The notes beneath the pieces are model-generated. The model was given only the letters and a program-made list of their open reading frames with translations. It was not told where the DNA came from and ran no database searches. A stretch of 63,603 nt of DNA, filler included, from Globobulimina sp. (taxonomy: Eukaryota), in the NCBI GenBank assembly GCA_003354225.1. It is 47 parts of 47 records of this genome, joined end to end, with 100 filler letters (N's around TTAATTAATTAA, not from the genome) between each part and the next. Parts side by side here need not be neighbours in the genome. Positions count along the whole stretch, not along the records: positions 62,350 to 63,603 come from PIVH01020030.1; 46 more parts are not named here. One strand, given 5' to 3'. Below are positions 16,173 through 63,603 of the stretch, one piece after another. Positions within the stretch are counted from its first letter, which is position 1, and every line of letters begins with the position of its first letter. The translations under genes and the position numbers were made by a program.

Positions 16173-16273
16173 NNNNNNNNNNNNNNNNNNNNNNNNNNNN
16201 NNNNNNNNNNNNNNNNTTAATTAATTAANNNNNNNNNNNNNNNNNNNNNNNNNNNNNNNNNNNNNNNNNNNNA

Positions 16274-16477
16274 GGGGGATGGCGGGAACAAGGACGTAAG
16301 AATATTACTTTTGTGATAGGTGGTTATGCTGGTCTTTGCAGCTCTGTTTTGCGGAAAACAGATATGGTTTTATCATTATCTAAAATGACATTCACCCATG
16401 AAATGACCCGGGTTATTCTTCTTGAACAGTTATATCGGGCCTTCTCAATACTAGCAGGCTCAAAATACCATAAATAA
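16274..16477 (+). CDS. rlmH: 23S rRNA (pseudouridine-1915-N3)-methyltransferase, C-terminal part (bacterial)
   Basis: ITFVIGGYAGL..LSLSKMTFTHEMTRVILLEQLYRAFSILAGSKYHK*; not in the ORF track. Confidence 0.95.
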   Translation, partial: GGWREQGRKNITFVIGGYAGLCSSVLRKTDMVLSLSKMTFTHEMTRVILLEQLYRAFSILAGSKYHK

Positions 16478-16494
16478 TTCATACCGTTCAGCAA

Positions 16495-16629
16495 TTACAC
16501 AGACACAACTTCTTCTACTCCAGGAACTTCAGCTTTTAAGAACTTCTCAATCCCCTCTTTGACCGTTACCTGAGACATTGGACATCCGTTACAAGCTCCT
16601 GTGAGTTGTACCTTTACTATACCTTCCAA
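16495..16629 (-). CDS. NifU C-terminal (Nfu-type Fe-S carrier) protein, 5' truncated
   Basis: [42 protein letters not shown] with the CxxC motif; convergent with rlmH. Confidence 0.9.
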
Positions 16630-16630
16630 C

Positions 16631-17383
16631 ATTGTATTAAAGGTAGCAAATTTTGGAACTAGTACTATTAACATAGGAGATACAATTCCAATTGGTATAG
16701 AAGTAAATGGAAGTCCGGCAGTAATGGAGTCATTTATTCTAACAGCAGTTTTAACAACTGGAAATTCTCAATTCTTTGTATCAGTAAATACCTTCGATTT
16801 CACAACTGTTGGTAGTTACGATATAGTAGCATATACTGAAATGTTCGATGATGTAGTTAATTTAAATGATACAATTTATGGAACAATATTCAATTATGGT
16901 ACTTTAGTATATGATTTAGGCCCTGATATTATTACAACCCAACCTGATACTGTAGTACTAGATGCCGGATCTGTTTATGTATCCTATTTATGGCAAGATG
17001 CAACCACCCTTCAAACATTTGATGTAGATACAGAAGCCTGGTACTATGTAACAGTTACGGATACAAATGGATGTGTTGGAAATGATTCGATATATGTAGG
17101 GAATAGTTTATCAACAAATCAATTGTTTGCAATGGAAAATTCTGTATCAATTTATCCAAATCCAAGTAACGGAATTTTCACAATAAATGCTATTAACGAA
17201 TTTGTTAATGATTGGATCATTGAATTAATTGATGTTCAAGGTCAGTTGGTCTATCAAATTAAAATTGATGATGTAAGATACTTCAGCAAAACAATTGATG
17301 TGTCTGCATTTGCCCAAGGGCTTTATTATATCAAAATAAATAATAACAAAGGATATATGGTTGATAAAATAATTATCAGATAA
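16631..17383 (+). CDS. Bacteroidota secreted protein with a T9SS type A C-terminal sorting domain, 5' partial
   Basis: [58 protein letters not shown] Ig-like repeat. Confidence 0.92.
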
Positions 17384-17399
17384 CTGTATCATTACAAAT

Positions 17400-17435
17400 A
17401 AAAACCCCTGTAATTAGCAATTACAGGGGTTTTTT
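17400..17435 (+). terminator. Rho-independent terminator
   Basis: AAAACCCCTGTAATT-agc-AATTACAGGGGTTTTTT, 17 bp after the stop codon. Confidence 0.9.
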
Positions 17436-17628
17436 GACTATGTTTTATTATAATTCACATAAAAAGTTGACAATAATAATTTTTTTTAATAAATTTATAT
17501 GTTTGTTGGATTTTACATCTAATAAATANNNNNNNNNNNNNNNNNNNNNNNNNNNNNNNNNNNNNNNNNNNNTTAATTAATTAANNNNNNNNNNNNNNNN
17601 NNNNNNNNNNNNNNNNNNNNNNNNNNNN

Positions 17629-18984: not shown

Positions 18985-19621
18985 AGAAATATCCAAAATA
19001 TCATGGATTGGAACATTATACATTGCATTCACGGAAATAAAGCGAATAAGCGAGTACATAATAGACATAAACATGGATAACAATTTAATATATAAATCAC
19101 TGCAATTTGAATATCCAATGGAGACGGAAGCATTCCATCGGTCAACATATATCATTTGGACCCGAGAGAGAGGGAAAACGCACCAGTTTGGGACACAAAG
19201 TAACAAACTCCAATCGGCGATAATTTGCCAATGTAAAGGGAACTACAAAATATGTACAAAGTGCATACTCATAAAATTGACATTATTAAGAAAGGAAATA
19301 GCAAAGAAAAAAGGAACAACATTGAAGCAAACAGACTATATCTTTACAGCAACAAATAAGAAAGGAATAGAGATACCAATTAATAAATACATGGTAGGAG
19401 CAAAGATAAAAGAATTATGCGCAAAAACAGGATACGATCCAGAATATTATACACCACATGGAATGAGAAAAGGAGGGACACAGAAAGCAATAGAAAGAGG
19501 AGTTCCATTGCCGCAAATACAAAAGCAAGCGGACTGGAAAGGACCAGCAATGATATTTAGATATAATAACAATATAACAATAAAAAATCAAATCAAAGTA
19601 TTAAAAAAAGCATATGCATAG
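18985..19621 (+). mobile_element. Tyrosine recombinase of a DIRS/Ngaro/Crypton-type element, 5' partial
   Basis: AFTEIKRISEY (catalytic R), YTPHGMRKGG (HxxR), ADWKGPAMIFRY (W and catalytic Y). Confidence 0.85.
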
Positions 19622-20340
19622 AAATAAAATTATTTAAATTTAATTTAACAACTTGCAAGAAAACGAAACACAAAAAACCACACCAAAGATAAGGGAGACG
19701 AATGGTAATATAAACTACAGGAACGAATGGTATATGGAGTGTTTCTGGCTATCCTATAAATCCGTAAATAGCCACAAACATGAAGTAGCCTGCCTAGTTA
19801 TTACCATACGTCCTAACAAACATACACAGGTATCATCGGGTATAATCCACTATTCCGTACCAATGACTCTTCCTTTTATTCATAAAATATGCATATATAA
19901 TACCTGAGCATCACTTCCCTTTAAAAATTAAGCCACCACCTATATCATACCTGGATTTTTAGCTGATGCAAAATTGAGAGCCACCGGATTGTATCCATTG
20001 ACAGCTGATAACCGATAACATCCATTCAATTAAAGTGGTTTCATTTTTTATTATTAAAATCACAGAATTAATTTGCGAATATGTTATCTTCTCAGTGTTT
20101 GGTTTGTATATTTTGTAATATCCTCTTTTTGCAGTGTTTGTTGTATAATCAATATTATTCATTTTCTTTTCTTGTTTATAATCCATATTTTGATTGACTG
20201 TCATTTTTGTTGTTGGGTTTGGAATTCGTTTCTGTTGTTTNNNNNNNNNNNNNNNNNNNNNNNNNNNNNNNNNNNNNNNNNNNNTTAATTAATTAANNNN
20301 NNNNNNNNNNNNNNNNNNNNNNNNNNNNNNNNNNNNNNNN

Positions 20341-29510: not shown

Positions 29511-29834
29511 GTATGCAATATGTATTAAAAAAAGTCAAAAAGAAAATCAAAGATATAGTCATTGGACATCATATGGAGGACATTGGAATGGATAAAAATA
29601 TATGTTTGTTGCGATATGGATATAAATATAAATGGAATCAAGTTTAGAATGCGCTGCAAATGATTTAGAGAGTGGTTCGTGTGCCAATTGGATACACGAC
29701 GCACATTTAGAAGGAGTATCAATGAACAAATANNNNNNNNNNNNNNNNNNNNNNNNNNNNNNNNNNNNNNNNNNNNTTAATTAATTAANNNNNNNNNNNN
29801 NNNNNNNNNNNNNNNNNNNNNNNNNNNNNNNNCT

Positions 29835-29912
29835 AGCAATTCTGTGGGAAATGGTCAATCACATAACAACATGCCACCATATTGTGTGCTTTCTTACATA
29901 ATGAAATTGTAA
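29835..29912 (+). CDS. C-terminus of a phage tail-collar / tail-fibre-like protein
   Basis: SNSVGNGQSHNNMPPYCVLSYIMKL* matches the G-x-G-x-x-HNN-x-x-PY-x-x-L-x-YI-x-K terminus of tail-collar proteins; not in the ORF track. Confidence 0.8.
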   Translation, partial: SNSVGNGQSHNNMPPYCVLSYIMKL

Positions 29913-30044: not shown

Positions 30045-31055
30045 ATGGCACTTGCTTCGGATACAAATCCACCAAACTCTCACAACAGACTGACCTCACA
30101 ACTACTACGAGCGATTGATAATTGCATGGACGAATTGCAAAAGCAATTGAATAAAAACCCAAACTCCCGTATTCATAATAATCATTTTAAAATTGAGCGG
30201 GAAGAAAAGACGTTTGACAATAACAATTATCATAGGAAGAATAATAAAAGATCGCGGAATAAGAACCCATCCGTTTATATGAGCAAACGTCTATCTTTTT
30301 ATTTACGTCATGGTGCCGAGAAAGCCGGTCTTAAGATTCGCAATGATGGCTATGTAAAAATCTCAGATATTTTGAATTTGAATGAATTCAAACAAAACAA
30401 GGCAACCTTTGATGTGATTAAAAACATCGTTGATACCAACGACAAGAAACGATTTTCGATGATCGAGGAAAATAAGAGATGGCTTATTCGAGCAAATCAA
30501 GGACATTCCATAAAATCTATCAAATCAAAAGAATTATTAAATGAGATTACAATGAATGACATTGATAGATTTCCCGTTGTCTGTCATGGCACATATTTGA
30601 AAGTGTGGGATATCGTAAAAATGCAAGGACTAAAAACCATGTCGAGAAATCATATCCATTTTGTTCCTTCTGATTCGGTGAATGGCCGAGGTGTAATATC
30701 TGGGATGCGGTATAACTGTCAAATATTAATTTATATAGATTTAAAATATGCGTTGCGTGATGGTATAAAGTTCTTTCTCTCTTCAAATAATGTTATTCTA
30801 TCTTCTGGCGCCAATGGACAATTATCGCCAAAATATTTCACAAAGTTATATGTGTCTAACTCTCTCTATGTAATAATATAGATAATTATATATAATATAT
30901 ACAGGGTAACGACTTTTGAAAAAGGAAAACCAGGCAAAATAATATGGATTAATGAGAGCTCAAACTTAAATTCAGACAATGAAAAAAGTAACAATAATAA
31001 TAATAATTATAAATTTAACAATAATGTTGTTCGAGATAGCTGGCATTCAGATTAA
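30045..31055 (+). CDS. TPT1: tRNA 2'-phosphotransferase (Tpt1/KptA), intron 30845-30904
   Basis: SKRLSFYLRHGA, NDKKRF, IRANQGHS, HGTY, MSRNHIHF; the 60-nt intron restores the frame to TAA at 31053-31055. Confidence 0.93.
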
Positions 31056-46092: not shown

Positions 46093-47278
46093 CAAAGGTA
46101 GTCACCAAATTGTTGGCAAAGTGATCGCCATCGGGCCCGCACGTATTTTCTAAGTTCATTTCCGGATACAACTCGTGGTAATCATCGCGTATTCGCGTCC
46201 AAATCTCGTCTTCCTTCTCCTCCATACACAGCAACGGGAACACTGTGATAAACTGCTTCTCGCCGCTCCAGATCATCCCGACCGGCGCAACCAAGTAATG
46301 CTGACGCTGCAGAATAAGCTTCCTTTCGTCCTGCCGTTGCTCGACAAACTCCGCCATGGAAGCTTGCCGTTGCAAGAAACTTAAATCGGCCAAGCCTCGC
46401 AATCCATTGTCTTGCTCCATTTCAGTGTCAGATTCTGCGTTTTTGTCATAATAATAGCTCCAAAACGATTGGTATTTCAATGCATTTAAGTCCTCGATGT
46501 GAATATGCGCCGGTAATTGGACCATGCTTTGGTTGTAACGGATCAATGGCGGCCCGGAGCCAGCATTTATTTTAAATAACGTCATAGTGATAGCATGGCC
46601 GTATTGAGGGCAAACATAACCAGTTAAAATAGACAAACCTTGCCCTAATAGCGAAATACTGATGGTCTGATCGCGCGGATTGATGATGTTTTCATTGTTT
46701 TGGCGAAAACTGAAGGTCCATAATAATGTATATTCTTTGTCGCCGAACTCAATGCAGTCAATGCACTGTTTACGTAAAGTATAGCCAACGATTTTGGTGC
46801 AGTTTTGATTTAAACCAAAACACATCGAAGCTATACCCATCGAGGTATCGTAGCGGGATCCGCTCGATTTCAATAATTGTAACTGGTTCGCCGGCGTGTT
46901 GGCGCCGACCTGACTCAATGCATTGGCACCGATTTTGATTTTGCTCACTACGAAGCCTAACCAGCCCACATTGTTCGGGTTGGGAAGGAGCGGACTTTCG
47001 TCATTGTCGAAGGCAAACAATAGTTCGTGGTCTTTGACGAGGACTTTGGAGGACAAATCTGTGCCGTCGCCGCCAAAATAAATATTGTCGTTGCTTTTGG
47101 CTTTGGAGAGGCTGCCGTTTTTGTTGAGGATCAATGTGATGTAAAATAAGCGGCCATGCGAGGTACTCAGCAATATTTTATACGTATTGAGCTGAGTTAG
47201 TATTAGATTGAGTGCAAGGATGCAATGGAATAATGAACATATATTTGCGTGTTTTAACTGAATGATGAGTGCCGACAC
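46093..47278 (-). CDS. Hypothetical protein, partial
   Basis: ORF of about 395 codons; no motif confidently recognised. Confidence 0.55.
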
Positions 47279-48802: not shown

Positions 48803-50057
48803 TGGCGGTGGCTCAGTTATATGGTATTCATCTTCTAATTGAGCACCGACTGATTCGTGATCAGAGGTATAAGATATTTCTGTATCTTCAATGGGTGAGG
48901 TTTCAGAGAAATTGAGTGATATGGAATTGTCAACAGGTAAAGTTTCATTATCCTGACCTATAATATCCAGCAACTTGCTCGCATCAATGGTCATATCTAA
49001 CTTTGATGGACGTGGCTGCGTTCGCTCCACATTCTTAACTGTGTAAATGTCATATTATACTGCTGTTACTTTGCAGTTTCAAATTGTATCCGATTTTGTG
49101 ATGTTGTAAATGTAAAAACAAAATGTTTTTGATGTAGTTTTTAATCTGTTTTATAATGTTTGCTACAGCAAAAAGTCAATACATACATTTATTTAACAAC
49201 TGCGTAAACGCCATATCCGCGTCACGTTCATTCAACTGAATGCGATCAAAAACATCATCATCCACAGTCATCGTAGTCCCCACCGACGACACAGACTCGT
49301 CCGAATCATCTGAATCGCCGTCATATGTGAACCCCGCAAACAACTGATGCTGCGATCGATTGTGCAACGAATTCTTCTCATCATCATAGTGCTCATACTC
49401 TTCCAAGTGTAAAATGTCAGTCCTACTCACAAATATGCCTCGGTATATGCCGCAGGTAAAGAAAAACTTGCCATCCACCACGCCGCTATGCACTCCCATA
49501 TCATCCAGTAACTCAATGCCATATTTCAATGCATTGTTATATAGCCCAATGAAGCGAATCTGTCCTTTGCCCTTTTTCCGTTTGACGCGCACCACTTGAT
49601 TTATATGCAAACGCGAAGTGGCCTCCAAATCTGTGCCTTGTATGTCCGTGGCGGAGGTCAGCCATCGGATTTGTTTCTTTTCCACAAAAGTGCCGTAATT
49701 GTCAGCGCATTTGAAGTACGAAATGCCTTTCAATGTCCCGTTGTTGTGACCCTGCGGCTTTTTGAGCTGGATGCCGTACCATATGGCACCGTTCAATTCC
49801 ACGGCAATCTCGCCGATGAACCGGATGGTGCCTTGCCGATTGTCGTTCAGATCTACTTGGTCGTTGATGGAGTATTCCATGTCTAGGTTGACGATGGTTG
49901 GGTTCAGAGGGAGCGCGTTGTGGTATGAGGGCTGTTTGCTATGTTGTTGGTGCGTTTGGAGAGAGTCTAAGGTGTTGGCACGTGCTCTTCGAGTGGGGGT
50001 GGCAGTGTTGTTGGTGTTGTAGGTGGTGGTGTAGTTGTTGTTGGGTGGCATGTTGTA
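48803..50057 (-). CDS. Protein with two CAP-Gly domains, intron near 49040-49187
   Basis: GTIRFIG..WYGIQLKKPQGHNNGT..YFKC and GQIRFIG..YGIELLDDMGVHSG..FFTC. Confidence 0.88.
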
Positions 50058-56832: not shown

Positions 56833-56932
56833 NNNNNNNNNNNNNNNNNNNNNNNNNNNNNNNNNNNNNNNNNNNNTTAATTAATTAANNNNNNNNNNNN
56901 NNNNNNNNNNNNNNNNNNNNNNNNNNNNNNNN

Positions 56933-58187
56933 CAAACTACTTAGTTTTCTGAGAGCGATTTGATGGTGTCGTTTCTGTCGCTGCAGCTCTTTGATGTTCG
57001 GTGTATTTTGCATCCAAGGTTGCGGTGGCCTTTTGAAGGTCTTAGAGCGAGCAGGGGCCAATTCATCTATTGTTTGTCTAATATAGGATTGTAAGGTATC
57101 AGCTCTAGTCGTCACATCTGCTCCTCTGTCGTAATTATCCAGCTTTGTAAACAAAGCGTCGATTATCGCGTCAGAGGTGAGACCAGATTTGTCCCTAACT
57201 TGGCATTGGAAAACTTTGTTTTTAGGCACTTTCAGCTTGAAAGCCGATAGCACCAGATTATGATCAGAGAGGTCACACAGCAGGGAATCTGATATAACAA
57301 GTTTGTCTGCCAGAGCACTGCTAACCATCACATGGTCAATCAAAGTTTTAGACAGATTGTTATTCATATAGGCTAAACGGGTGGGCTTGTCGATCAGCTG
57401 TTTCAGGCCGTAATCCGTGCAAACACGCAAAAGCTGTCTAGCTGGAGCACTGCCTGACAATAGATCAACATTCGAATCACCCAATATGATATGATTTGGC
57501 GATAAAGAAATTGTCTCAGCTAGTGTGCCAAAGTTATCTGGGAACTCTGCCGCACTACAACAGCTATGAAAATTTCTATAGAAAGCGGTGACATTTACAG
57601 TACAACCAACAGTTCGCACCGTAGCACACAGCTTCTCAAAGTTCGCCATTTGGGTAGCATTTTCTAAGTCCGTGTTTTGGACCGGGTTTAAGCCCTCCTT
57701 TATGTACAAAACAAGACCCGAACCTTGTCCTACACCATCTTTTCTAAACAATACATACCCGTTTATTTCCAATATATTTTGGTCATCTTTATCGGTTAGC
57801 CAAGTTTCACTTACGGCAAGGATGTCAATTCCGGTGGTTCTTAAGAGTCGATCGACTTGTTCAACTTTATTTCTGAGGCTCCGGATGTTAATATGAGCAA
57901 CTGTGAGTAATCCGTTTCGGTCAATTTTACATTTTCGGATTAATTTTGGTAATTCCCAGCAAGTAGAGATGTTTTGTAGCTCTGGTGCTATTATTTCCAT
58001 AGGTAGATTTGTTGATGAGAGACAGGAAAAGCAAAAAATTGGAAGAATTGGGGGCAATAATTGAGTAGGAATGTGCCGAAGTTTAGCACAGACAGGGTGA
58101 AACCAGAGCTTACATTCATGACATTTAAATGCTCGATCATTTAGCAATGGAACGAGACATTCTGAGCAATTAGATCTTCTTTTATCT
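56933..58187 (-). mobile_element. LINE (CR1/L2-like) ORF: PHD finger + apurinic endonuclease
   Basis: CHECKLWFHPVC..FCFSC; HINIRSL, ILAVSETWL, ILGDSNVD, PTR..LIDH, SDHNLV. Confidence 0.92.
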
Positions 58188-59641: not shown

Positions 59642-60895
59642 TATATATATACATTACATACAACATATAAAATATAGCAGTAACACTCCCTAATCTGCCA
59701 CATCTGAGCTTAAACCTTAACGACAGCAAAACCACCGAAGAGGACGTATTATGCGCCTTAGACCCTTCACCCATTGCCATGGTCAATGATGACGTCATTC
59801 GTATCGCCACAGCCACGCCCAAACTAAAATTATTACGCGAAGCTGCTAAATCTGAGCCACCGTATCCCGCGTCGTATCACCAAGCGCCGCCCACTAGAAA
59901 CCACACCAAATCCTCCAAATCATTACACATCAAACACATCACCTCGCAGCCTCCACCAATGCCGACCTATTACATACATTCCAGTTACAGGCAAAAGCAA
60001 AATGCGCCGATCACTATGCATAAAAAAGTCAATGTCCAAACACAGCAACAGCAACATAAGAAACACCACAATCGTGTCCATTTCGATAAGTCAGTCACGC
60101 CCAAACCGAAGCTGTCTGCAAATAATATGGATCTGATCCCTTCCAAATCAGCCCCCGGCCATACACACTCAAAAACAAATTGTATGCAGAAGCATGGCGG
60201 CAAGACGCGTGCCAATGGCAAGAAAATGAAGCGGTCAGAAACGCCGCAACCAGTGTACACTAAGAATAGAAACCAAAAAGACTCGGGCTCGCAAGTGCGG
60301 GTCATGCGCGACAAGGAGGTGCTGCAAATCGACCAGGAAATCCCCATCGAAAAGTTTATCAGCGCACTGAAAAAGGGCTATGCGAGGATCATGACGCAAG
60401 ACCAACAGAATGAGGAATACAACAAATCGGCGCGAATTGCCAGGAGTGTTTCTGTGGGGAATATGCAAGCGTATAAGGATGAGATATTGGCCGCTGCGCA
60501 GCAAGAAAAGCATAGAAAATTAAACCACCGAAAATTAAAAAAAAATCAAAATGTAAAAGGCAATAAACCGTTTCGACCGAAATCGAAATCAGAGCACAAG
60601 AAAAATAAATCAGAGCATAGCAAAAATAAGTTTGAACTCAATGTACATTTATCCAAATCCATACCGCCCAAACTATTGCAATGTGTGGAGAACAATTCCA
60701 GCGATTCTGACGAGAGCATGTCTGGTTCGTCGTCGTTGGACTTATTGGACCCACCCAAACAGATCGAGACTGCGCGAGATATGGTGGTCAAAGCCTGCAA
60801 ACCGAAACGGCCAAAAATGAAAATAAAAATTAAACGTTCCACGACCGGCACAAGACATAAGAAAAATGACCGTATCCGCAGTAAAACCGCCACTG
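59642..60895 (+). CDS. Basic, probably disordered hypothetical protein, partial
   Basis: Long K/P/S/H-rich ORF; no domain recognised. Confidence 0.55.
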
Positions 60896-61277
60896 NNNNN
60901 NNNNNNNNNNNNNNNNNNNNNNNNNNNNNNNNNNNNNNNTTAATTAATTAANNNNNNNNNNNNNNNNNNNNNNNNNNNNNNNNNNNNNNNNNNNNATGTT
61001 CGTCTCATCTTCTGATTCTTCTCGTATCTAGTAGAAACTGTAAATAAAGATCGTACTGCACTATAAATAAGGATTAGACGAACATTTACTTAAGCTTTTT
61101 CTCTAACAATTCACAAATGATTAAAAAAAGTTGATCATGAGCAAAAGCAAGGTCAAATAGGAAAACTCTATTGTGTTTACTGTTTAGGTCTGCTCAGAGA
61201 AAAGAGAATAATTTAAACTTTCTTCTTTTAAGCTAGCTCAGCTGTACTCATTTCTTATATATATTCAACAATCAACA

Positions 61278-62249
61278 ATGCTTCAAACTCAAAGACAAGC
61301 TCTCCCAAAACGAAATGTAAATCCATTCAATCCCCAACTAAAACAATCAAAATCGTTTGTAATATTTGGCTACAAACTGCCACGATTGTTTGTGTTGATA
61401 ATGTGTCTTTTGATCTTAATAATCTTTGTATTGATAATGGAGATCTCACACAATGGACAACACGAAGCCAATCCATCCCAATCAAAAACGCAATTGCAAC
61501 CCACACAGACACCAACAATCACAAACAAACCTGAAACATACATGAAGAATAAAATAACTTTGCAAACCGCGCCGACGAACATCATTCCTGTTTTAATATT
61601 TTGCCATGCTCGGCCACCATACTTAGCGCGTACATTGCAATCCGTATTCAAGCAATTAGACAGAAACCAGTGGCATGAGGAATTTGTCATATTTATCTCG
61701 CAGGACGGCAGTCATCGGGAAATCCAGCAAATCATTGAAAAATATGCCAGACAGCAAAAAGCATACTGGTTACACTTTGATTATGCGTCGACAGCACAGA
61801 AAATGATGAAAGGCTTTGAACAGGAAAACTGGAGAGTGTATCACAAAATATCTGCGCATTACAAATGGGCTTTGAATAAAATGTTCATTGAGCTGGACTA
61901 CAAAAAAATAATTGTCCTCGAAGAAGATATGGAAATCAGTCCCGATTTTTTTAATTATTTTTATAACTTAGCTCCGTTGTTAGATGTTGACAAATCTATA
62001 TATTGTATATCAGCGTGGAATGATTATGGGCAAAAGGGACTGGTCAATGATCCAAATGCATTGTATAGAACTGATGTATTCCCTGGTTTAGGTTGCCATT
62101 TTTTATTTGTTTTGCTAATGAAATAAAAAAAACATGAACTTTGTTTTTAGGTTGGATGTTAACACAGGAATTATGGGAGGAATTTCGTTATTATAGTTCC
62201 ATTGCCTTCTGGGATGATCGGTTCAGACCACCCAAACAAACCACGAACA
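61278..62249 (+). CDS. MGAT1: Alpha-1,3-mannosyl-glycoprotein 2-beta-N-acetylglucosaminyltransferase (GnT-I, GT13), intron 62092-62150, 3' partial
   Basis: Type II TM; FISQDG, YHKISAHYKWAL, LEEDMEISPDFF, CISAWND, RTDVFPGLG spliced to WML..FWDD. Confidence 0.95.
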
Positions 62250-62581
62250 NNNNNNNNNNNNNNNNNNNNNNNNNNNNNNNNNNNNNNNNNNNNTTAATTA
62301 ATTAANNNNNNNNNNNNNNNNNNNNNNNNNNNNNNNNNNNNNNNNNNNNTAGAATATCTTCAAAACTTTAAAGAATCAAGTAATTTCCCAAAACTTTTTG
62401 TTTATTGTTCAGTTTCGTCTTCTTTCTATGTATTAAACATTGTCGTCTATGAGCTGAGAACCCAGATATTATTCATATTAATAACTAACGTGTCATGGGA
62501 AAAAAAAACCATGATTCTCATTTCTCAGTTATTTGAATCTATAAAACGGATAATTATAACAGTATACTGTACATCTGGTAT

Positions 62582-63442
62582 TTATTGATCGCCAGCATAA
62601 ATAAATAAATTTCCAACATGTAGGGTAGGTTGATACACTTCAACACGTGAACCATTACCAAAAGACACAGTTGATACAGTACCATAGGGATGGGATGGTG
62701 CGTATGGATTATAGGCAGTTGGTGCTACACATTTTGTAGGCACTGATGACCAGCCATCGTAATTACACCCCGTAAGCCAAATTTGATGTGAATGTGGAGG
62801 GATATTTGCAATACTTAATGTTATATTTTCTTTCCCAATTTTATCACCAATTGTGTATTTATCACCATTTATTCCAATAACACGATCTCTTCCATTCGGC
62901 AAAGCAAATCTTGTAAGTAAATGATAAGAATCTGCTGCTGTATCAACATATTCATTTTCTGATGTTTTATTTCCGAATACATAGCCAATAATGTTAAATA
63001 ATTCTGTATAATCCCTTGGGTCAAGAAACGAACCATCACATAATAGCCAATTGCTATGACTGTCATTGTGTGCCGATATTTTATAATCACCAATATACGT
63101 TTTGTAAATATCTGATGATGGAATTGCTGTTGGAATTGCTGTTGGAATTGTTGTTGGAATTGCTGTTGGAATTGCTGTTGGAATCGATGATGGAATTGTG
63201 TCTGAATTGGAGCAGACACAATTATTTGTTCGAAAAAATGTCACATATGTTACCAATACAGTACAATAAATCAGTACCAATGAAAGCAATATCATCCAAA
63301 CTATTTGATAAAAGGGTGTATGTTGCCCATGACCAGTTGCATCACTTATCATTGGAATATATCGTTGAGTTCGAGTTGCCTTTGTTTTAGTTGTATTCAT
63401 TTCAATCTGAGGCAACAACTCATCTGAGCACTTTTCATCCAA
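62582..63442 (-). CDS. Single-pass membrane protein with a Pro/Thr stalk and a phage tail-collar domain
   Basis: TM IVWMILLSLVLIYCTVLVTYVTFF; (PTAI)n; IGDYK..WLLCDG..YTELFNIIGYVFG..FALPNGRDRV..GKENITLSIANIPPHSH..QPTL. Start codon uncertain (TTG 63442 or ATG 63400). Confidence 0.85.
   Translation of the reverse strand: MDEKCSDELLPQIEMNTTKTKATRTQRYIPMISDATGHGQHTPFYQIVWMILLSLVLIYCTVLVTYVTFFRTNNCVCSNSDTIPSSIPTAIPTAIPTTIPTAIPTAIPSSDIYKTYIGDYKISAHNDSHSNWLLCDGSFLDPRDYTELFNIIGYVFGNKTSENEYVDTAADSYHLLTRFALPNGRDRVIGINGDKYTIGDKIGKENITLSIANIPPHSHQIWLTGCNYDGWSSVPTKCVAPTAYNPYAPSHPYGTVSTVSFGNGSRVEVYQPTLHVGNLFIYAGDQ
63119..63196. repeat. 12-bp coding tandem repeat (TTGGAATTGCTG), about 5-6 units
   Basis: Encodes IPSS-IPTA-IPTA-IPTT-IPTA-IPTA-IPSS on the minus strand. 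Confidence 0.9.
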
Positions 63443-63603
63443 CTGTTTCGACTCTGGAAATAAACTAAAACAGTGGGGAGGTTATAATGGAATATATCGT
63501 TAAACACCCCTGGTCGACTTTTTGTACAACATTTTTTTCCACCCCTTAACCTCAATAATGTCTTTCGTTGCGCTCACTGCTTTTTATTTATTAGCATCAG
63601 TTT

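Follow-up and report, generated by a model that had tools for sequence, protein, structure and literature searches.

The window analysed here, a stretch of 63,603 bases from Globobulimina sp. (GenBank assembly GCA_003354225.1), carries in its last part an open reading frame (ORF; 62582-63442, minus strand) whose product ends in a phage tail-collar, or fibre-tip, domain set on a membrane-anchored stalk. On balance, we read it as a nuclear gene of an AT-rich, foraminifer-like eukaryote that uses a captured fibre tip as a type II surface receptor or adhesin for binding bacteria or particles. That the gene belongs to a foraminiferal family built on a captured fibre tip is highly probable; that its function is the binding of bacterial surfaces, as analogy suggests, is a considerably more tentative proposal. 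The domain scores above the Pfam cut-off and is predicted to fold like solved phage fibre tips, the complete layout recurs in about 40 homologues that fall into a single clade, and every looked-up homologue with an organism label comes from a foraminifer.

Layout and predicted fold of the protein

A cytoplasmic-type N-terminus, one transmembrane (TM) helix, a CVC motif, a (PTAI)n stalk and a set of collar motifs had been listed in a preliminary description of 62582-63442, and all of them are present (Table 1). The N-terminal tail includes an acidic stretch ending in IEM, as in homologues, and a YIPM motif of the YxxPhi type 19 residues before the TM helix; an acidic dileucine motif, looked for by eye in the cytoplasmic tail, gave no match. 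The stalk repeat, a 12-nt unit in 7.7 copies (63119-63209) encoding (PTAI)n, scored 15.9 bits with the Pfam PT repeat, below the family cut-off. In the C-terminal domain, WLLCDG, PPHSH and QPT are invariant or nearly invariant columns of the family alignment. A 124-codon ORF on the other strand (63016-63390, plus) was rejected as a gene, being the reverse reading of the PTAI repeat with a run of ELLL.

Both its score and its fold place the C-terminal domain in PF07484. The Pfam Phage Tail Collar model (PF07484) matched residues 128-160 (62963-63061) with 34.2 bits relative to a gathering cut-off of 24 (E=2.5e-8), confirming the collar identity first proposed from the motifs, and six of six PHROG matches were to tail or tail-fibre families. 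The prokaryotic families of NCBIfam yielded no match at E≤1, and PF21939 (Gp10_C) reached 14.3 bits against a threshold of 27, with a structural Z of only 2.1 for the T4 gp10 C-terminal domain (2fkk). Among PDB sequences, a search with the family profile found the long tail fibre of cyanophage A-1(L) (8kec; E=7e-4). An AlphaFold2 (AF2) model of residues 110-286 from a 67-row alignment had a mean predicted local distance difference test (pLDDT) of 80.0 and a predicted template modelling score (pTM) of 0.64, with confidence falling to 59-73 between the HxH and QPT motifs. Of 48,161 representative chains compared using VIA-align, 17 reached Z≥2 and four of these Z≥8, whereas unrelated chains scored no higher than 2.4. 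The four were the cyanophage A-1(L) fibre (8kec_A; Z 9.4, root-mean-square deviation (r.m.s.d.) 4.6, 118 residues aligned, 25% identity), the T4 gp37 tip (2xgf; Z 9.0, r.m.s.d. 2.1, 78 aligned), the receptor-binding domain of T4 gp12 (1ocy; Z 8.8, r.m.s.d. 3.4, 91 aligned) and gp12 within the T4 baseplate (5iv5_O; Z 8.3), with another gp12 structure at Z 7.3 (5lye); further fibres, among them that of the Photorhabdus extracellular contractile injection system, ranked below these four. Among the predicted viral structures of BFVD there were 50 matches at E≤1e-3, and every named one was a collar, baseplate or tail-fibre protein (MdpB-type proteins included), with collar proteins of Cafeteria roenbergensis virus (CroV), Orpheovirus (on a collagen-like stalk), Fadolivirus and Terrestrivirus in the set. 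The nearest ESM Atlas clusters were phage or bacterial collar/MdpB proteins (cosine 0.82-0.84), which is a lead at most.

In structural terms the protein as a whole does not qualify as a tail fibre, since both the N-terminal shaft or attachment part and the tail gene module are missing; its N-terminal half consists of a cytoplasmic tail, a TM helix and a Pro/Thr (PT) stalk.

As had been suggested for this domain, a trimer structure was predicted from three copies, and the complex reached an ipSAE of 0.85 against 0.10 for the best control, possibly through likeness to solved fibres; contact agreement between runs was at least 89% and partner pLDDT at least 80. In calibration, 21 of 30 solved homo-pairs and none of 23 single chains attained the ipSAE mark; among eukaryotic cases the numbers were 17 of 29 overall and 1 of 7 where an older solved relative was absent, a rate from which it follows that the score may reflect resemblance to solved fibres. 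The prediction was run without an alignment, and Zn was not scored. Between the three domain copies, the predicted interface includes the HxH motif, within residues 100-118, as well as residues 160-170 and the C-terminal QPT strand.

A diversified family and its probable foraminiferal owners

A first, word-indexed search returned 15 homologues at 34-64% identity, with PF07484 precomputed on 14 of them; a profile search returned 49 at E≤1e-5 (PF07484 on 43), and an exhaustive search with the domain among 1.84 billion representatives returned 2642 at E≤1e-3, 266 at E≤1e-10 and 7 at E≤1e-30. The entire order of tail, TM helix, stalk and tip recurs in the closest homologues, and in 40 proteins, the window protein counted, one C-terminal domain is preceded by a TM helix. 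The median tail length in these is 71.5 aa, and the stalks span 17-349 aa (median 62), mostly with 30-60% Pro/Thr/Ser. Lys and Arg are more abundant before the TM helix than after it in 30 of the 40, the positive-inside pattern of type II proteins, which points to a cytosolic N-terminus; the proposal of a type II surface protein is thus supported by an order of parts held in common with about 40 homologues. Furthermore, 11 of the 40 have a YxxPhi motif 16-36 residues before the TM helix, which would fit internalisation and is a weak lead only, because such motifs are frequent by chance. More distant matches contain 2-4 tandem domains, lack the anchor and have a C-terminus of the QPY..LNY.I type.

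To place the protein we built a maximum-likelihood tree (LG+G4, quick search, midpoint-rooted, without bootstraps) from 129 domains, taking every retrieved protein or locus ORF that matched at least 120 positions of the domain hidden Markov model (HMM) at E≤1e-5 and dropping shorter matches. A clade of 64 rows (Shimodaira-Hasegawa-like approximate likelihood ratio test (SH-aLRT) 97) comprised the window protein, all 10 foraminifer-named rows and all 30 TM-type rows without an organism label, together with 20 such rows in which no TM helix was detected, many of these being short and probably truncated sequences, and 3 scored as multi-domain. In the other half of the tree lay all 7 metagenome or viral loci, of which those examined are phage, 37 of the 40 multi-domain rows and 20 of the other 21 rows without a TM helix; the last of these 21 (P0121) is sister to the clade. 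The window protein has the layout and the QPT...GNLFIYAG end of the family, and within the clade it falls in a subclade of nine rows (SH-aLRT 98) with three proteins of Nonionella stella and one of Bolivina argentea. The phylogeny called for in the preliminary description therefore separates the family from phage and bacterial forms; its Nucleocytoviricota side stands outside the tree, as do the giant-virus, virophage and Plasmodiophora brassicae collar sequences.

Exact-sequence look-up of 27 proteins gave an organism label for 15, all foraminiferal (N. stella 9, B. argentea 6), the remaining 12 being ENA, JGI or Logan entries without an organism label; a tenth N. stella protein came up as a further member of one of the clusters looked up (P0016). 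An early hint at rhizarian homologues has therefore found its species, since all 15 named homologues are labelled N. stella or B. argentea, and a eukaryotic owner, rather than a phage or bacterial one, is most likely, given that the roughly 40 homologues of this layout form one clade. Taken together, and judged on sequences, the family is a distinct and diversified collar/tip lineage whose only named owners are foraminifera.

Relatives in phages, viruses, prokaryotes and metagenomes were remote. A narrow scan of 2.9 million IMG/VR contigs with two family motifs found no clade member and two weak relatives among 40 matched stretches, both phage-like, one of which (L002), an ordinary phage contig, has portal-like, fibre and terminase-like ORFs. 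The corresponding motif scan of GTDB, in which a single genome represented each of 185,579 prokaryote species, found no clade member and two partial relatives among 29 stretches (36-41% identity), and that of JGI metagenomes found 15 relatives among 440 stretches, with at most 31% identity over the whole domain. Phage records gave matches in 140 genomes, all below 60% identity and at 28-36% among the matches listed. The best of the JGI relatives form the C-terminal tip of a 341-aa fibre encoded between baseplate, fibre and sheath genes. One such locus (L006:1286-11144; also L004 and L005), in which the relative is the C-terminal 160 residues of the 341-aa fibre, is a myovirus-type module with baseplate genes, three fibre genes sharing an N-terminal domain, sheath genes and head-closure genes, an arrangement that looks like one of swappable fibre tips.

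Variation is concentrated in the stalk repeat and in the head loop of the tip. At least part of the target contig is contained in 8 listed sequencing runs from 4 studies, none on record as RNA although three are guessed to be, and contigs of 4 of these runs were compared, a comparison that cannot separate alleles from close paralogues. One run (X1) was near-identical to the window, of which it may be the source, and the other three (X2, X6 and X8) were ~90-97% alike. In these three the 12-nt repeat is shorter by 36, 60 and 72 nt, always in frame, a loss of 3, 5 and 6 PTAI units. The same three are strongly diverged at 62693-62773 (residues ~224-250, in the loop between HxH and QPT): 15 substitutions are listed there for X2, a 79-nt block of X8 matches the window in length but is too diverged to align, and X6 breaks at both edges. 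The head loop is also the most variable segment of the family, with a mean entropy of 2.62 bits relative to 1.36-1.68 in the other three segments, a top-residue frequency of 0.36 relative to 0.52-0.65 elsewhere and a length of 39-70 aa. A diversity-generating retroelement was considered as a source of the loop variation and rejected: the X2 differences (62693-62771) fall on plus-strand G (6), C (5), A (3) and T (1), and since they are not adenine-specific on the coding strand, nothing points to such an element.

The gene start, the contig and the window

The window is composed of 47 pieces of 1254-1256 bp, arranged from longest to shortest and separated by 46 identical 100-nt spacers, each made of 44 N, TTAATTAATTAA and 44 N (1257-1356, 2613-2712 and so on to 62250-62349). 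The pieces are separate small contigs of a fragmented assembly; as they are unlinked, gene neighbourhood across any spacer is unsafe and no linkage was assumed. The target gene is alone on the last piece (62350-63603, 1254 bp), with no second gene there. An argument for a host gene drawn from the contig, from the absence of an intron and from a linked second copy consequently fails on a window of unlinked 1.25-kb contigs; the case for host origin rests on the homologues.

Upstream of the first ATG (63400), the frame is open to 63481 and contains no ATG before 63400. The acidic IEM stretch is located in this upstream part; in homologues it lies inside the protein, ~15-40 residues from the start. 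The statement that the contig has no intron is not safe, as a candidate 54-nt intron was found there (Table 1), which resembles a 59-nt phase-1 GT-AG intron on another contig of the window (see below). At 63425 the contigs of three compared runs (X1, X2 and X6) cease to follow the window and continue in a common loose end, a pattern that suggests an in-frame indel allele, with the upstream frame still open, or else a local fault in the assembly; 63426-63527, within which the whole candidate intron lies, is covered by none of the compared run contigs.

A second copy of the collar gene had been placed at 29835, and this claim holds in part. The trace is real and of collar type: the family HMM gave E=0.018 for 29781-29909 (plus), and frame 3 from 29835 reads 25 residues to a stop in the G.GQ.H.N..PY..L.YI pattern of a bacterial or MdpB-type C-terminus. 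It amounts, however, to only 25 codons of a different subtype on another contig, and tblastn of the target protein against the window returned the self match only, with nothing near 29835. The fragment ends 135 nt upstream of a complete intron-less gene for a Tpt1/KptA RNA 2'-phosphotransferase (30045-30881, plus; PF01885, E=9e-63), both lying on one 1255-bp contig, different from that of the target. Two collar-type genes among 47 random 1.25-kb contigs hint at many copies in the assembly.

Table 1. Positions of the target gene, its parts and the second collar-type fragment, counted along the window.
Feature	Position	Strand	Remarks
ORF, TTG start to TAA stop, 286 codons	62582..63442	-	frame open upstream to 63481
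Minimal coding sequence from the first ATG (63400), 272 aa	62585..63400	-	query for the first homologue search
Candidate first mini-exon, 25 nt, from the ATG at 63532	63508..63532	-	hypothetical
Candidate GT-AG intron, 54 nt, phase 1	63454..63507	-	pyrimidine-rich AG acceptor at 63454, GT donor at 63507
Cytoplasmic N-terminal tail	63305..63453	-	includes coding-like in-frame sequence upstream of the first ATG
Single TM helix, residues ~47-70	63233..63304	-	Kyte-Doolittle hydropathy; aligns with TM segments of homologues
Membrane-proximal CVC motif, residues 75-77	63212..63220	-	CxC in 21 of 40 TM-type members
Pro/Thr/Ser-rich stalk	63110..63211	-	core is a tandem 12-nt repeat coding for PTAI
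Tail-collar/fibre-tip domain, ~175 aa, residues 112-286, C-terminal	62585..63109	-	Pfam, PHROG, AF2 model, VIA-align, BFVD
PPHSH (PxHxH motif)	62786..62800	-	first His invariant, second at least 90% conserved (67-row alignment); within the predicted trimer interface
Variable head loop, residues 221-261	62660..62782	-	highest family entropy, reduced model confidence
Conserved C-terminal strand, family signature QPT...GNLFIYAG	62585..62632	-	family alignment
AATAAA hexamer overlapping the stop codon	62581..62586	-	weak evidence in AT-rich DNA
C-terminal fragment (25 codons) of a collar-type gene, bacterial/MdpB-like subtype	29835..29909	+	cut by the contig edge

On many of the other pieces there are partial matches to eukaryote-type families (GNT-I, ANF receptor, Tyr and Ser/Thr kinases, annexin, COMM, CAP-Gly, SAM and C2). 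The neighbouring piece (60996-62249) carries a gene for N-acetylglucosaminyltransferase I (GNT-I; PF03071, E=2e-47), which is split by a 59-nt GT-AG phase-1 intron (62092-62150, plus) whose removal restores the conserved reading; this short intron shows the assembly to be genomic DNA of a eukaryote with very short introns. Other pieces differ in character. An ORF at 16601-17383 (plus; contig 16273-17528) ends in Por_Secre_tail, the sorting domain of type IX secretion (E=3.9e-15), a Bacteroidota-type feature, so that either the contig is bacterial or the gene was transferred, and a fragment of a tyrosine recombinase of the phage-integrase family (PF00589, E=3e-8) is located at 19073-19621 (plus; contig 18985-20240). 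In three ORFs (49176-50051, minus; 46093-47278, minus; and 59779-60895, plus), one of them with CAP-Gly domains, the G+C content at third codon positions (GC3) is 0.52-0.60 and codon usage is nearly uncorrelated with that of the AT-rich eukaryote-like pool (r 0.03-0.18), suggesting that the assembly mixes organisms or is heterogeneous in an isochore-like way. PF03372 and PF14529 (endonuclease/exonuclease/phosphatase and endonuclease-reverse-transcriptase) occur together on an ORF at 56885-58147 (minus), as in non-LTR (long terminal repeat) retrotransposons. The assembly is thus mainly that of an AT-rich eukaryote with short introns, plus some foreign or mixed material.

Proposed function, alternatives and known systems

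We infer the membrane topology, glycosylation, metal binding, trimerisation in the cell, ligand and cellular role of the protein as follows. It would be a single-pass type II protein, with the cytoplasmic tail, TM helix, CxC motif and Pro/Thr stalk leading to a tip outside the cell; the stalk, probably O-glycosylated and variable in length, would keep the head off the membrane. Since T4 gp12 and gp37 are known as trimers with HxH metal sites, the ectodomain would be expected to trimerise, with three stalks carrying one binding head in which the PPHSH histidines of the three chains surround one metal ion, and the membrane-proximal CxC may form interchain disulfides. The variable loop would be the distal binding surface. 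In evolutionary terms, a phage or bacterial collar module would have been captured once and then duplicated, with diversification of head loop and stalk. The likeliest ligand would be polysaccharide or lipopolysaccharide (LPS) on the surface of bacteria or of other particles, and the likeliest role would lie at the pseudopodial surface, in capturing, taking up or recognising bacteria or particles. A speculative extension, possible although some way from probable, is that the dozens of paralogues derived from the captured tip constitute a germline-encoded repertoire of trimeric receptors for different bacterial surface glycans on the pseudopodial net.

Several observations weigh against a foraminiferal surface receptor of this kind. 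The lone position of the gene on a 1254-bp contig leaves it without a physical link to a eukaryotic gene. Its composition (GC3 0.18) had been offered as a sign of host origin; its relative synonymous codon usage (RSCU) correlates at 0.80 with that of pooled eukaryote-like ORFs, but two bacterial-looking ORFs of the same window also correlate with this pool, at 0.68, so that codon usage and composition do not discriminate, and the FYMINK/GARP amino-acid ratio gave no discrimination of homologues from the same genome. The 54-nt intron is a hypothetical element of a gene model only. In the window protein itself, the 15 residues before the TM helix hold no Lys or Arg and the 15 after it hold one, and its topology is therefore read from the wider tail and from the family. 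Foldseek against the PDB was without a match at E≤1e-3, its best match being 8kec at E=0.039, although its best PDB rows were all phage fibres. The pass of the trimer prediction may echo the memory that the model has of solved phage fibre trimers. Finally, the N. stella and B. argentea protein sets are ones that we take to be transcriptome-derived, from the study that we presume to be their source. The study that sequenced these two species describes polyA-selected and total-RNA libraries (PMC8153729), and transcripts of associated microbes or viruses may therefore stand behind some foraminiferal labels.

The alternative that survives best, which we consider rather doubtful, is a foraminiferal surface protein with a ligand other than bacterial prey, acting in self/non-self or gamete recognition among cells or pseudopodia, in adhesion to substrate or mineral grains when a test or cyst is built, or in recognition of symbionts or kleptoplast donors. 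It draws on the same architecture and family evidence, and a hypervariable head loop on a stalk of variable length would suit systems of the allorecognition or mating type equally well. Nothing points to a particular alternative ligand, however, and the solved tip relatives of known ligand, T4 gp12 and gp37, bind bacterial surfaces. Adhesion to particles is a real activity in a species with many copies, as N. stella has been reported inside a cocoon made of inorganic debris (PMC8153729); in the opposite direction, collar/tail proteins of Dishui Lake virophage 2 (DSLV2) are reported to bind LPS of the cyanobacterium Synechococcus (PMC12724248).

Ownership by a giant virus or virophage of foraminifera, or by a recent viral insertion, would make the protein a fibre of the virion or of a viral-factory membrane, and is unlikely. 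Giant viruses and virophages do have collar domains, some of them on stalks, which tells against a cellular gene: the Organic Lake virophage and its giant-virus host are described as having both collar proteins and mucin-like repeat proteins (PMC3671162). The BFVD matches to collar proteins of CroV, Orpheovirus, Fadolivirus and Terrestrivirus agree with such an owner, and a short contig of AT-rich composition, like intron-poor genes, would also suit a giant virus. Yet the narrow two-motif scan of IMG/VR produced no clade member and only phage-like matches, the candidate intron would be spliceosomal, and many diverged subfamilies are common to the two foraminifera and the window, which fits long vertical inheritance.

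A bacterial or prophage contaminant contig coding for a membrane-anchored collar protein with a PT linker is very improbable: PT linkers and N-terminal membrane anchors do occur in bacteria, the codon usage is compatible and other contigs of the window hold the type IX sorting domain and the phage-integrase fragment, but the two partial relatives from GTDB and the phage records (at most about 35% identity among the matches listed) are weak, the bacterial-type relatives, with 2-4 tandem domains and a different C-terminus, fall outside the clade, and every named clade member is foraminiferal.

Of the determinants that decide to which bacterium a phage can bind, its tail-fibre tips are the best studied. 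If the gene does encode a foraminiferal receptor built on such a tip, a recognition device has been co-opted across domains of life by a eukaryotic predator of bacteria and kept in many diversified copies; a phagotrophic protist would have made a system for recognising prey or microbes from the determinants of phage host range. It would give a molecular handle on how foraminifera recognise and capture prey, symbionts or particles, and the module could supply membrane-displayable binders of bacteria that fold in a eukaryotic cell.

Among known systems, the fibre of cyanophage A-1(L) (8kec) is the best match by sequence profile and by structure, and the collar, the PxHxH region and the C-terminal strand are common to both; unlike the target, it is a 379-aa virion fibre with an N-terminal tail-attachment shaft and has neither TM helix, cytoplasmic tail nor PT stalk. 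T4 gp12 (1ocy, 5lye, 5iv5) and the gp37 tip (2xgf) have the collar fold in common with the target at only 14-22% identity. They are long fibrous proteins anchored in the baseplate or fibre and encoded in a tail gene module, which is absent around the target; their trimers are held by His-x-His metal sites, bind LPS or Omp outer-membrane receptors and need phage chaperones for folding. The MdpB or 'microcystin-dependent protein' collar proteins of bacteria and phages (COG4675-like), including the multi-domain bacterial ones, have the same full-length domain and are the next-best matches after the foraminiferal clade; they are single domains of ~160-230 aa without an anchor, or 2-4 in tandem, end in QPY..LNY.I and not in QPT...GNLFIYAG, and lie outside the clade.

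Collar domains, some on a repetitive stalk, are also found in giant viruses (CroV E3T4R8, Orpheovirus, Fadolivirus, Terrestrivirus) and virophages (OLV18/19, DSLV2). These are viral structural proteins for which the accessible parts of the reports mention no TM-anchored type II layout. The domain also occurs in the 191-aa protein CEO97090.1 of P. brassicae, a rhizarian like the foraminifera, which is listed with a 'Phage Tail Collar Domain' among putative secreted effectors (PMC9530463); it is short and listed as secreted, not as a TM-anchored protein on a stalk, and it was not among the family matches. In a literature search that left aside supplements and most subscription journals, no paper was found that links the collar domain to foraminifera or describes the order of TM helix, stalk and collar, and the papers naming PF07484 contained nothing on eukaryotic cells. 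Such proteins have probably been annotated automatically in domain databases already; what would be new here is the architecture around a known domain, the lineage-specific expansion and, probably, the use. The closest functional analogues are the class A scavenger receptors and membrane collectins of animal phagocytes, which are type II trimers with a stalk and a C-terminal microbe-binding head. With their collagenous or coiled-coil stalks and their SRCR or C-type lectin heads, they are unrelated to the target in sequence and fold, and by analogy only they suggest how a stalked trimeric tip may serve at a cell surface.

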